The notes under the pieces were generated by a model. It ran no database searches and had not been told where the DNA came from. It worked only from the letters and a program-made list of their open reading frames with translations. A DNA stretch of 64,000 nucleotides, taken from Eledone cirrhosa (Eukaryota). A program made the position numbers and the translations under genes. Position 1 is the first letter of the stretch, and each line of letters begins with the position of its first letter. Positions 10,383 through 49,483 of the stretch are shown here, piece by piece. The stretch lies in NCBI GenBank assembly GCA_964016885.1, contig OZ024740.1, forward strand, positions 408,332,001-408,396,000. Reading direction: 5' to 3'.

Positions 10383-10691
10383 AAATAAATCTCCTTATCT
10401 GTACTTTTTTATTACTCCAAGATATATTTACATAGGAATACAAGCGAAGTCAAAAACTCGTCACCCACGTAAACCTCTTGTTGAGTCACATAGCACCGTA
10501 CGCTTAAACTGTCCATGATAAGTAGTTTTCACAGACTCTTATCGGATATATATATATATATATATATATATATATATATTTATATATATATATATAGTAA
10601 TAATAATAAATTTGAAGACTAAAATCCAAAGAGGGCTCGATAAGGATATATCAAATATATAAGAACCGTAGAGCAAATATTTATTAAAATA

Positions 10692-10767
10692 ACAGATTAA
10701 AGTTTAAGCAAAGAATCGCTGCTTTCACCATTAACGGGATCTTCTGAAACTAACAAAGTCAATCTGT
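10692..10767 (-). ncRNA. Variant hammerhead (U4A), family A
   Basis: Same fold as 46892-46967, with one substitution in stem II. Confidence 0.65.
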
Positions 10768-11926
10768 AAACGCAGAAGTGAATATTTCAAAAAACGTTGC
10801 AACCAGAGGAAGACAGGAAGACGATACTTTGGTTCGTGGAAACGTTCCCTGGCAAAGAACGGGAAAAAACGAATATAATACGTCTTTATTTGGAGTGGTG
10901 AAAAACAATTACCCGCAAAGACAGAACCACGTTTATGGTATAAAAGAAGTCGTAGACTAATATTCTCTTAGGTGGTGCATAGAGACGTTCTCTGGCAATG
11001 AACGGAAAAAACGAAGATAATACGTTATATGTGGAGCGTGGAGAACAATTGCACGCAAAGACAAAACCACGTAAATGGTATAGCCGAAGTCGTAGACTAA
11101 AATTCTAACTAGGAAACCGAATGATTCTCCGCTTCAGAGTTAAGAATAAAGTAAATAAAATACAGAGGTAATTGAAATTAAATAAATACATACACGCATC
11201 CTAATACGTACATACACAAGCATACGCGAAAACACTCGCCATAGGTATACAAATACACGCACATATAAATATGTGTGTGTGTGTGTGCGTGTATACAAAT
11301 AATTAAATAAACGTATATAAATAAATACGTATATAACAAGCGCACACACATACCTACATGTAAATACACAAATGTTCGGAAACGTACGTCAACCAAAACA
11401 CGAACTACACATATACACACACCCTACATACGTACGAACCCGCATACTCACACAGACGCAAAACTCACGTATACACATAATCAAAAGCATATGTACCAGA
11501 ATATATAAAATATACGCCATAACATATACAATCAAATATACGTACGAGAAAGTATACGTACCTTCACAAAACATACAGGTAATTTATACTTACCTATGCA
11601 AATAAGTTATGGTATAAACATAACATATACTTAGCTACCACATCAAGACGTAGAATATCCGTGTATAGATCGTGCTATCCGTTAGGGTATAACGTGGGGC
11701 TGTAATACAGGAAAGTTTTGTGCAATTTATCTTTACAAGCCGAAATTGCCTCAGATTTTTTGTTTAAGATGTGGTCTGTGGCGTAGAGTATTTCCAGGGC
11801 CTCAGCGGCGCAGAGGTCACATGGTCTTTTATTTCCGTTATACGATCTAGCCCTAGCTAGGATCTCCCAGTGTAACTTATATTGGGTGTGGTTGCAACGT
11901 TTTTTTAAATATCCACTTCTGCGTTT

Positions 11927-12002
11927 ACAGATTGACTTTGTTAGTTTCAGAAGATCCCGTTAAGGGTGAAAACAGCGATTCTTTGCTTAAACTTTAATCT
12001 GT
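11927..12002 (+). ncRNA. Variant hammerhead (U4A), family A inverted-arm copy
   Basis: ACAGATTGA..AGTTT-CAGAAGA-TCCCGTTAAGGGT-GAAA-aCAGCGATTCTTTGC-TT-AAACT-TTAATCTGT. Position 15.2 is mutated G>A. Confidence 0.6.
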
Positions 12003-12136
12003 TATTTTAATAAATATATATATATATATATATATATATATATATGAAAACAGGGAGAAAAAGACGATTATTAGGAAGAAAAAAAAAATTTTTTTTTCCC
12101 TTTTTTATTTCTTTCTCTCTTATATATATATAATGG

Positions 12137-12473
12137 AGGCACATGGCTTAGTGGTTAGAGCATTGGCCTTGCAATCGAAAGATTGTGAGTTCAATTCTCA
12201 GACCGAGTGATGTGTTGTTTCCTTGAGCAAGACACTTTATTTCACATTGCTCCAGTTTACTCAGCTGTAGAAATGAGATGATAGGGACTGGTGTCCCTAT
12301 CATTCCACTGCAAAGTGGTCGTGGAGGTGACACGGCAAAAAAGCACCCAACACTCACTGTAAATGAGGTTGGTGTTAGGAAGGGCATCCAGCTGTAGAAA
12401 TCAAGCCAGAATCAGTTCCCGTCCCACCCTTGCAAGCAGGGAAAAGCGGACGTAAAATGATGATGATGATGAT
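12137..12473 (+). mobile_element. tRNA-derived SINE family A, full length, RTE-2-type tail
   Basis: A box TGGCTTAGTGG, B box GAGTTCAATTC, CCTTGAGCAAGACACTT core. The last ~45 nt are identical to the end of RTE-2 at 8596-8644. Confidence 0.88.
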
Positions 12474-12489
12474 ATATGTGTGTGTGTTG

Positions 12490-46054: not shown

Positions 46055-46404
46055 TATGTATACATATATATGTGATGTGATCTTTTCTAGCTACTTACGC
46101 TCAGAGAGTGGGATTGGCTCAGTGCACAGGCATTGCATGATATCATTAATTGATAATTATTAATAATGTTATATCGTGCAATGGCCATACTCGATAACGA
46201 GGGGGCAGCCATCATATATATATGTATGTGTGTGTGTATATATATATATGTGTATATATATATGTGTGTGTGTATATATATATATGTGTGTGTATATATA
46301 TATGTATGTGTATATATATATGTATATGTGTATATATATATATATATACATATATGTATATATATGTATGTATATATATGTATATATATATGGAGGCACA
46401 TCGA

Positions 46405-46728
46405 GGCACATGGCTTAGTGGTTAGAGCATTGGCCTTGCAATCGAAAGGTTGTGAGTTCAATTGTAAGACCGGGTGATGTGTTGTTTCCTTGAGCAAGAC
46501 ACTTTATTTCACATTGCTCCAGTTTACTCAGCTGTAGAAATGAGATGATAGGGACTGCAAAGTGGTCGTGGAGGTGCCACGGCAAAAAAGCACCCAGCAC
46601 TCACTGTAAATGAGGTTGGTGTTAGGAAGGGCATCCAGCTGTAGAAATCAAGCCAGAATCAGTTCCCGTCCCACCCTTGCAAGCAGGGAAAAAGTGGACG
46701 TAAAATGAAATGATGAAATGATGATGAT
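46405..46728 (+). mobile_element. SINE family A with RTE-2-type tail
   Basis: Matches 12137-12473 with a ~20-bp internal deletion. Confidence 0.88.
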
Positions 46729-46891
46729 ATATATGTATATATATTTATCTATCTATTTCTCTCTATATATATATATATATATAAATATATAGTAATAATA
46801 ATAAAATTGAAGACTAAAATCCAAAGAGGGCTCGATAAGGAAAATATATATCAAATATATAAGAACCGTAGAGCAAATATTTATTAAAATA

Positions 46892-46967
46892 ACAGATTAA
46901 AGTTTAAGCAAAGAATCGCTGCTTTCACCCTTAACGGGATCTTCTGAAACTAACAAAGTCAATCTGT
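46892..46967 (-). ncRNA. Variant hammerhead (U4A, U10.1.U11.1, CUU), best-preserved copy
   Basis: ACAGATTGA-ctttgtt-AGTTT-CAGAAGA-TCCCGTTAAGGGT-GAAA-GCAGCGATTCTTTGC-T-T-AAACT-TTAATCTGT. Confidence 0.7.
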
Positions 46968-47875
46968 AAACGCAGAACTGGATATTTCAAAAAACGTTGC
47001 AACCGGAGGAAGACAGGAAGACGATACTTTGGTTCGTGGTAACGTTCACTGACAAAGAACGGGAAAAAACGAATAATACGTCATTAATAGGAGCGGTGAA
47101 AAACAATTACGCGCAAAGACAGAACCACGTTTATGGTATAAAAGAGGTCGTAGACTAATGTTCTCTTAGGTGGTGCATAGAGACGTTCTCTGGCAATGAA
47201 CGAAAAAACGAAGATAATAAGTCATATGTGGAGCGTGGAGAACAATAGCACGCAAAGACAAAATCACGTAAATGGTAAGCAGAAGTCGTAGACTAAAATT
47301 CTAACTAGGAGACCAAATGAATCTCCGCTACAGAGTTAAGAACAAAGTAAATAAATACAATACAGAAGTAATAGAAACAAATAAATACATACACGCAAAC
47401 AGATACGTACATACACAAGCATACGCAAAACCTTACCATAGGTATACAAAACCACGCACATATAAATATGTGTTTATGTATGCTTATGTACAAATAAATA
47501 AATAATTATATAAACGTATATAAATAAATAAATACATATATAACAAACGCACATGCATACCTACATATAAATACACGAATGTTCGGAGACGTAAGTCAAC
47601 TAAAACAAGAAGTACACATATACACACACCCACTATACGTACGAACCTGCATACTCACGCAGACGCAAAACTCCCGTATACACATAGCCAAACCCTAAAT
47701 ACCAGAATATGTAAAAATGATACGCCATAACAGTCAAATATACGTACGAGAAGGTATACATACCTTCACAAAACATACGGGTAATATATACTTACCTATG
47801 CAAATAAGTAAAGGAATAAACAAACATATACTTAGCTCCCACATCAAGACGTAAAATATCCACGTATAGATCGTG

Positions 47876-48842
47876 CTATCCGTTAGGGTATAACGTGGGG
47901 CTGTAATACAGGAAAGTTTTGTGCAATTTATGTTTACAAGCCGAAATTGCCTCAGATTTTTTGTTTAAGATGTGGTCTGTGGCGTAGAGTATTTCCAGGG
48001 CCTCGGCGGCGCAGAGGTCACATGGTCTTTTATTTCCGTTATACGATCTAGCCCGAGCTAGGATCTCCCAGTGTAACTTATATTGGGTGTGGTTGTCTTT
48101 TAGACTCCAGATATAAGCTGAAAGTGACGTCATATTCCTTCTTAGAGGGTAACGAAAAGAATGGGTATGCATGTAAAGACGCTGCTTGAAACTATTGGCG
48201 GTTAACCCTATGTAGGCCCTACGGGACGTGGGTGTTACAACCTTACATTTGTAGACAATGTTACTAGAGAGGCATTTCCCAGATAGGGGGCAATCAGCCC
48301 GATTCCTACAATTACAGTTAGTACTAACTACAGGGTTGCACGTGTTCCTACGGCTAGGTAGTTTAGCTAAATTTGAAGCTGAGATGTTATGTGCATGGTT
48401 AGGAGTCATAGAGTAAGAAATTTTAATAGTATTTCTATTAAAAATTTTACTATATTTATGTGTAGGGGGAAAATGCTTCATAATAAGGGAAAGAAAGATC
48501 TTAGCTAATGGTGTGGCCACCTCCGTATTATATGGTGGGTTAAACCAACAAATGCGACGGTATCTATTTCTTCTAGGTCTATTTTCGTACTCAGTATATG
48601 CTACCTTATCGACAAATCCACTTCGAGCAAGAGCTTCATTGTAATAAGTGGAATGGTCGTTGAAAATGCGCTCGTTGGTGGAAAGACGGGAAAGCCTCAA
48701 CGAAACGTTTCTTACCAGGTTCTTGGTTATGCTGGCAGGATGGTTGGAATGCTTACTTATGTAATTAAGTGTATCATTCGGCTTTCTATACGGGTAATAC
48801 AACCCATTCAATAAATTGAGGGTAACGTCGAGGTAATTAACG
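47876..48842 (-). CDS. 5'-truncated PLE ORF: RT C-terminus/thumb + Cys-rich linker + GIY-YIG endonuclease (Naiad-like)
   Basis: VNYLDVTLNL..YRKPND..SNHP..WFNPPY..CNCRNRADCPLSGKC..IVY..YIGLT..FKQR..H..CDLC..LNKKSE..CKH. No stops in >310 codons. Confidence 0.9.
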
Positions 48843-49483
48843 GATTCTTTGCTTAAACTTTAATCTGTTATTTTAATAAATATATATATAAATATATATA
48901 TATATATATAAGTATGTACACGTACATACATATATGTATACAGACGTACACATATATGTATGTACGTGTACATACTTATATTTAAGTAACAGCCGTACTA
49001 AGAGTGGGAAATGAAATTTTGTTTCATTTTTTCCGTTTATATATATATATAAATATATATATATATATAAATATTGGAAAATGTGTGAGATCCTTGGTAC
49101 AGTTAGGTATATTTGAAAAAAAAGGAAAAGAATTACTTCATTTGTAGTGTTAAATAATTTGATTTAATTTTATAATATTATATTATGAGTTGGTAGATCT
49201 AGTAAGTTCTTTGTTAACTTCGGGGGAAGAATTTTAAAGATTCCTGGTCAACTTTGTTGGATAACTTTCTCGCATCCGTTGGTGGCGATTGTCAAACTAA
49301 GATCAGGTTGTGTTGAGATGTGACTATATATAGGAGAGATTGGATGTGTCTGCGGTGTAGGGTGTGGAGTTAATGAGTGTTGATAATGATGAAGATTTGG
49401 AGGAATTAAAGCATACATACACACACACGCACACACACACATACACATACACACTCAGAAAATGGTGAGGTTGCAAGAAAATA

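Follow-up and report, generated by a model that had tools for sequence, protein, structure and literature searches.

Tandem hairpins as candidate marks of both insertion ends in Hydra-clade Penelope-like elements

The origin of the tails and inverted pseudo-long terminal repeats (pLTRs) of Penelope-like elements (PLEs) was named an open question in PMC8557442, and it returns with a PLE family (family A) that we analysed in a 64,000-nt stretch of Eledone cirrhosa DNA (GCA_964016885.1, contig OZ024740.1, positions 408,332,001 to 408,396,000 of the forward strand), called the window here. For the Hydra clade, PMC8557442 reports inverted 5′-truncated copies with a tail of 30-40 bp at either end and attributes this tail to endonuclease (EN)-mediated resolution. 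PMC3846280 describes an optional 31-bp tail and proposes self-priming. For PAc, a Poseidon-clade element of Anolis carolinensis, PMC11167929 reports that both target strands are nicked and extended, that reverse transcriptase (RT) initiates internally, at two sites that delimit the tail, that RNA 3′ of these starts is required and hammerhead cleavage is not, and that priming occurs without homology. That study answers the question of tails and pLTRs in part: it maps two RT starts, but not what fixes them.

The elements described here, in the window and in 11 independent Hydra loci (L001-L011) used for comparison, share with the published Hydra clade a C-terminal GIY-YIG EN, a CxCX5C linker, CxxC and CxH motifs, (TA)n targets, a predicted hammerhead near the 3′ end, inverted 5′-truncated copies and a tail (PMC8557442). 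They differ in tail length, which is 62-137 nt here and tied to a tandem hairpin motif, and in the variant hammerhead core of family A; the main text of PMC8557442 contains neither 'hairpin' nor 'stem-loop'. As in PAc, two fixed insertion ends bound the tail; nicking and extension of both target strands, a need for downstream RNA and the use of uncleaved RNA as template are features of PAc itself (PMC11167929). PAc differs, however, in belonging to another clade and in having a 30-40 nt tail with starts in an AC-rich stem-loop without target homology, whereas the starts proposed here would lie at target-matching TA tracts, each with its own hairpin; the main text of PMC11167929 names no repeated positioning hairpin. 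By eye, a GGCCA...GAAAG word occurs twice in the PAc RNA letters (Fig. S1 text of PMC11167929), ~41 nt apart, near the tail length, and the Poseidon clade may also have a tandem cis element. Penelope elements of Adineta vaga and Drosophila virilis (PMC3846280, PMC2377424) likewise have inverted pLTRs, an optional 31-34 bp tail, 8-10 bp target-site duplications (~9-11 nt at L008) and a solo open reading frame (ORF) between direct tail repeats, as at L010 (66 nt); self-priming was proposed there, whereas non-overlapping inserts here favour two primings.

An earlier note on this DNA had inferred, from family A and further families, a programmed twin-priming mechanism with two defined, AT-rich priming sites on the RNA. 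That twin-priming inference is probably right and was largely anticipated in print, in that a fixed two-end pattern with two internal priming sites bounding the PLE tail is not new (PMC11167929). What we add is a tandem hairpin, absent from the earlier note, that marks both ends; comparison of the sequences makes it fairly likely, in our judgement, that these hairpins position the RT.

Family A and its fixed ends

By its motifs, (TA)n target and C-terminal EN, family A is a Hydra-clade PLE. Its three main copies (A1-A3; Table 1) all have (AT)n on both sides, matching Hydra-clade (TA)n insertion. The ORF fragment in A3, P0001, aligns at 38-49% identity with RT-GIY-YIG proteins of ~700 amino acids (aa; 120 of 220 matches listed) and covers the C-terminal half of homologues of 574-751 aa, placing the GIY-YIG EN C-terminally, after the RT thumb. 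It carries CxCX5C, as do 109 of the 120 listed homologues, without CX2-5CxxC, and shares with all 120 a CxxC before a conserved E and a CxH after a conserved N. The N-terminal motifs RWK/RWR (82 of 120) and DKT (108 of 120) fall in a region truncated in the window copies. A Pfam scan of P0001 gave no match, and in a protein tree built without Neptune, Nematis and Poseidon references it forms a long branch. Assignment to Naiad PLEs, whose EN is N-terminal and which lack a canonical hammerhead, was rejected, as the family A EN is C-terminal.

The family A hammerhead is a pattern-scan prediction in which three helices and GAAA are present and the core reads CAGAAGA instead of CUGANGA. This variant (U4 to A) recurs in all long family A copies, diverged ones included, at 10746, 46946, ~35555 and ~6490, all on the minus strand; canonical cores occur in window families B, E, G and X. 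With Rfam, neither the window nor the 10 loci scanned (all but L001) gave a match to a hammerhead or to another relevant family.

Each family A insertion consists of two head-to-head pieces between (AT)n runs (read in element sense, which is the minus strand for A1 and A3). The three differently truncated insertions listed in the earlier note are all present: their inverted arms measure 125 nt (A1), 65 nt (A2) and 41 nt (A3), and their inner junctions differ. The arms nevertheless all stop at ...TAATAAATA(T), 25-29 nt past the predicted hammerhead cut, in agreement with the fixed end previously placed at ~27 nt; this position is a 3-4 nt interval inseparable from the (AT)n flank. The long ends share one common base (...TTATTAC), 80-85 nt beyond the arm end, as the ~80 nt given before would lead one to expect, and 109-114 nt past the cut. 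Because arms and inner junctions differ and the flanks are unrelated, bar one dispersed repeat resembling a short interspersed nuclear element on opposite sides of A1 and A3, the three represent independent insertions, and the flank comparison led us to reject segmental duplication as the source of their common ends. Three arm ends within ±2 nt would arise by chance with a probability of ~0.002 if ends were uniform over 110 nt, or ~0.11 if ends could fall only at the three alternating-AT runs beyond the cut. The long pieces of A1 (10597-11894) and A3 (46792-48095) differ by 1-3% in the terminal 200 nt and coding end and by 3-16% in the middle of the 3′ untranslated region (UTR); the low divergence of the terminal 200 nt suggests constraint on the hammerhead-hairpin region.

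A tandem hairpin beside the two ends

The comparison loci came from a profile search of genome contigs with a 29-protein alignment, and their proteins are 35-43% identical to P0001, with a median of 47% among themselves. They are animal-type PLEs in contigs of marine bacterial metagenome-assembled genomes or symbiont assemblies in GTDB, and their DNA is most likely eukaryotic, from host contamination of those assemblies. Past the hammerheads we spotted by eye a motif composed of RCWC, a variable stem-loop, a 2-nt bulge (mostly TT), GWGY and ACT, which as RNA would form a bulged hairpin of 20-40 nt (RCWC-stem-UU-GWGY-ACU). The pattern has 22 matches in 67,689 nt of loci against 2.0±1.3 in 20 shuffles, a count that is partly circular, as the pattern was drawn from the loci in which it was then counted and the rows are not all independent; 18 of the 22 lie at a tail or 5′ UTR position. 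When 18 instances were folded, 16 had the base stem and 13 the exact stem-bulge-stem. MAFFT failed to register the variable-loop hairpins, so pairs were counted from an anchored alignment (the hairpin 1 row of L003 is one base off and was counted so). The upper stem, which the pattern does not demand, is paired at 52 of 63 positions against 25±4 expected (0 of 10,000 shuffles; rows not all independent), with double-sided changes at pairs 1, 3 and 5 (G-C/A-T, T-A/A-T and T-A/C-G).

The position of this hairpin relative to the insertion ends is nearly constant. In 16 of 17 end events scored by script (8 short-end families and 2 long ends), the last common base lies 1-6 nt upstream of the motif; the 17th, in the diverged copy B2, gives 5 nt in a MAFFT alignment, and one event scored as 1 nt is 5 nt by eye. 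The distance from hammerhead cut to short end, by contrast, is 29, 35, 51, 51, 55 or 56 nt depending on the family, and since it varies while the hairpin gap stays at 1-6 nt, the hairpin, not the ribozyme, is the ruler. The constant hammerhead offset of the earlier note therefore holds within family A and fails between families.

A 5′ pLTR-ORF junction is present in five loci; each of these has a pair of hairpins with a spacing of 62-68 nt, and the second hairpin begins 38-55 nt before the ATG (the first hairpin is degenerate in L003 and lacks its first base in the 5′ pLTR of L010). The unit thus runs hammerhead, TA tract, hairpin 1, ~40 nt, TA tract, hairpin 2, ATG. Tails of 62, 63 and 66 nt in three other families agree with the hairpin spacing. 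Short ends precede hairpin 1, and long ends precede hairpin 2 in the two testable cases, L005 and L010, where the long end lies 4 nt before it. Four of the five Hydra-like inverted inserts with both ends visible in the loci have one short and one long end. The tails of four other window families with both ends visible are 64, 80, 95 and ~137 nt; the earlier note had given ~65-80 nt for families whose labels (D, F and G) cannot be matched to ours, a range into which two of the four fall and two do not. Its statement that the inverted arm always has the short end is borne out for A1-A3, but not at 8659-10546 (family E), where the inverted piece bears the tail, at L011, where the inverted piece is tail only, or at L006 2192-6029, where both ends are identical. 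Family E, whose tail sits on the inverted piece, conforms to the hairpin rule if its long hairpin is taken into account. Some unit-length or tail-only copies have 5′ ends at the start of hairpin 1 (L010 3886-3948, L009 1513-1580 and the Hydra-1_Ajap consensus), a pattern to be expected if cDNA started at site 2 often ended at site 1.

A TA tract commonly adjoins the hairpin: 14 of 20 instances have an alternating-AT run of at least 4 nt within 11 nt 5′ of the hairpin, compared with 3% of control windows. At 9 of 10 Hydra sites the alternating-AT overlap with the flank is 3-5 nt, taking the target to be (TA)n, and the chance of an overlap of at least 4 nt is 0.03-0.08 per window family. The longer TA runs of the family A tail lie inside the hairpin and are unused in all three copies, so annealing to (TA)n, which the earlier note had proposed for both sites and with which the overlaps of the Hydra elements agree, cannot be the sole determinant.

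The motif is also visible by eye in 4 of the 6 new Hydra consensus sequences of the PMC8557442 supplement, twice at the 5′ start of Hydra-1_Ajap; one of the two remaining sequences ends too early to judge. The same contigs also contain elements with hammerheads of other types, including one that is Neptune-like in its motifs, and these lack the hairpin. We found no published description of the hairpin or of a tandem hairpin module in the literature covered, subscription papers and Repbase notes lying outside it. A single long tail hairpin uniting both ends was considered and rejected, being found in family A only (where 6 and 21 of 200 shuffles reach it) and not in B, C, D or E.

Two primings and competing explanations

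Support for two defined priming sites, one per target strand, comes from the fixed ends, the head-to-head junctions and four inserts (A2, B2, A4 and L009 8704-8808) whose arm holds sequence absent from the long piece. In A2 and B2 the pieces do not overlap (Table 1); at L009 8704-8808 long piece and arm measure ~50 and ~52 nt. Such arms cannot have been copied from the long piece, unless a later deletion occurred each time. If priming is at hairpin 2, synthesis of the 1.3-2.05 kb long pieces has to cross an intact hammerhead site to reach the 3′ UTR and ORF, and so needs tandem or circular RNA, with which a 391-nt partial tandem in L005 and a 66-nt terminal repeat in L010 are in keeping. PLE RTs are not known to possess RNase H, for which the alignment of P0001 homologues leaves no room, and re-copying of the overlap is therefore plausible.

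The reading we favour, with moderate confidence and from sequence alone, is that the two hairpins each position one RT for twin target-primed reverse transcription from both nicked strands of a (TA)n target. The GIY-YIG domain would nick both strands, and each 3′-OH would form 2-5 nt of pairing with a TA tract that adjoins a hairpin bound by protein. Both cDNAs would then extend 5′-ward on tandem read-through or circular RNA with an intact hammerhead site, stop at variable points and be joined head to head by microhomology. A hairpin-2 cDNA halting inside the tail would leave an insert without inverted repeat (A2, B2), and one passing site 1 would create an overlap, the inverted pLTR (A1, A3). 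In twin priming of L1, too, the second target strand primes internally and head-to-head cDNAs are joined by microhomology; there, however, the second site is used opportunistically and neither piece repeats the other, whereas here the sites are fixed and overlap is common. PAc lends support through extension of both strands from two internal starts that equal the tail bounds (PMC11167929).

Several observations weigh against this reading, besides the partial circularity of the motif count. Priming in the Poseidon clade occurs without homology (PMC11167929). The relation of long end to hairpin 2 rests on two loci, and hairpin 2 is visible in no window family. L006 2192-6029, the fifth inverted insert, has both ends at one site, and the 3′ pLTR of L003 stops 7 nt past the cut. 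The window contains three strict motif matches against 2.0 expected, though all three lie 1-5 nt behind a short end. The family B hairpin and the first hairpin of L003 are degenerate and do not fold as drawn, the minimum free energy (MFE) fold of A1 differs, and the Hydra-1_Obim consensus in PMC8557442 shows no clear hairpin by eye. The 'attac' family of L006 and L009 overlaps TA by only 1 nt, and L008 overlaps its real target by 2 nt, next to a duplication of ~9-11 nt.

Among other explanations, it is unlikely that the GIY-YIG endonuclease reads the motif on DNA and cuts a transposition intermediate at the adjoining TA tract, so that resolution rather than RT start fixes the ends. PMC8557442 attributes the tail to EN-mediated resolution, PMC11167929 cites a D. 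virilis EN that needs the tail for recognition and cutting of AT-rich DNA by PAc, and TA tracts would be natural cut sites; but PAc RT starts map directly to the tail bounds (PMC11167929), non-overlapping inserts require two separate syntheses, and the upper stem keeps pairing rather than sequence, which suits a single strand, with wobble pairs leaning weakly to the sense strand. Less probable again is that the hairpins direct RNA cleavage or termination, yielding two RNA species with 3′ ends at the two sites that both undergo end-primed reverse transcription. TA tracts for annealing are kept before both hairpins, and PAc in vitro starts internally whatever the RNA 3′ end (PMC11167929), although RNA-seq read ends fall at the same sites in that study and arms of 758 nt (L008) and >1.5 kb (L001) would be easily made from two RNAs.

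The four arms with sequence that the long piece lacks make single priming followed by fold-back or self-priming, the model of PMC3846280, decidedly improbable; it also gives no reason for a fixed outer end before the hairpin. Later deletion could mimic some of these arms, and besides being put forward in that paper the model agrees with the near-perfect palindromes at the junctions of B1, C, D, L006 and L008. We give hardly any weight to the absence of a programmed site, with ends falling, or being trimmed by later deletion, at any short TA microhomology in AT-rich DNA: the 4-5 nt alternating-AT overlap at window arm ends and the fact that family A has no more than three such runs beyond the cut (three coincidences, p ~0.11 on this basis) would allow it, but none of the 3 copies uses the two longer TA runs of the family A tail, and the hairpin gap is 1-6 nt in 8 families, including one with a 1-nt overlap.

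Other insertions and what the hairpins may mean

Table 1 Features of the window (positions in the 64,000-nt stretch)
Feature	Position	Strand	Details
Insertion A1	10597..12017	-	long-end piece 10597-11894 (3′ UTR, end of GIY-YIG domain); inverted arm 11889-12017; joined by 6-nt microhomology TGGTTG
Hairpin 1 of A1	10632..10674	-	GCTC...TC GAGC CCT, 2 nt after short end; MFE gives alternative fold
Predicted type I hammerhead of A1	10702..10750	-	variant core CAGAAGA; cut after 10706 by homology to A3; no Rfam match
Insertion A2	43998..44073 (start ~43998)		short-end piece 65 nt, long-end piece 13 nt; no overlap; junction microhomology 2 nt
Insertion A3	46792..48883	-	long-end piece 2.05 kb with RT thumb and GIY-YIG ORF fragment; arm 41 nt, 48843-48883
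Hairpin 1 of A3	46827..46874	-	4-bp base stem and 2-nt bulge in fold, z -2.6
Predicted hammerhead of A3	46902..46950	-	pattern scan; core at 46946, cut after 46906
P0001, Hydra-clade PLE ORF fragment in A3	47876..48842	-	thumb, CxCX5C linker, GIY-YIG with CxxC and CxH
A4, diverged family A copy	35435..36127		arm exceeds long piece by ~310 nt and ends close to the same site; hairpin decayed, uninformative
B1, family B	43523..43951	+	hammerhead core 43762; short end 43523/43856; degenerate hairpin 43862-43891; tail 95 nt
B2, family B	39621..39830		long-end piece ~45 nt, short-end piece ~165 nt, no overlap
Family C palindromic insertion	56643..56870	+	hairpin 56808-56831 (ACTC...TT GAGT), 1 nt after short end; tail 64 nt
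Family D palindromic insertion	56884..57085	-	hairpin 56932-56958, 5 nt after short end; tail 80 nt
Family E Hydra fragment	8659..10546	-	ORF-bearing piece ends at short site, 25 unassigned nt follow; inverted piece bears tail (~137 nt)
Family E long hairpin	10414-10489	+	on tail-bearing inverted piece, 5-8 nt after short end

Further Hydra fragments lie at 9.8-10.3, 34.5-35.1, 57.3-58.0 and 62.3-63.6 kb. All three hammerhead-bearing family B pieces (43523-43951, 39621-39830) start at one inner position, ACTACC, ~100 nt before the cut, possibly an RNA 5′ end or an RT stop; a start site at that distance as a general limit on arm length was rejected, the A4 arm being ~310 nt and arms in the loci reaching at least 758 nt. 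Element G (60670-64000) is a large inverted Hydra insertion whose left end lies 91 nt past a minimal hammerhead and whose right end is beyond the window; no hairpin was seen in G or in the decayed element X, both of them uninformative in this respect. A remnant of another Hydra pLTR lies at 26454-26565 on the minus strand, where a decayed hammerhead-like sequence precedes a TA run and then a clean hairpin, ACTC...TT GAGT (z -2.6).

A (TA)n-flanked unit at 53420-55790 has a partial-tandem direct repeat of ~486 nt (53421-53906 / 55335-55770), no hammerhead and no open frame longer than 121 aa, and is possibly a non-autonomous PLE-like element. A perfect 26-nt inverted pair (53120-53145 and 55974-55999) surrounds several nested insertions, and a TA-flanked segment at 44100-44520 has a 105-nt palindrome at its centre (44188-44292). 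AT-rich old inverted repeats at 28.7-32.4 kb and 40.0-40.4 kb, with no hammerhead or PLE protein match, were excluded.

We believe and doubt in equal measure that Hydra PLEs carry a clade-wide tandem RNA module, a short target-pairing TA tract ahead of a bulged RT-binding hairpin, that programs both insertion ends from one RNA. If so, the sister group of TERT would have a telomerase-like arrangement of alignment plus protein binding, the PLE tail would correspond to the hairpin spacing and the inverted pLTR to cDNA overlap. A direct test is possible, since the motif persists among proteins that are ~45% identical and is repeated at a spacing that matches the tail length. If the proposal is right, twin priming becomes separable from the fold-back and endonuclease-resolution models, curators gain a rule for the boundaries of Hydra elements, and a cis element of a microsatellite-targeting RT related to telomerase would be defined.

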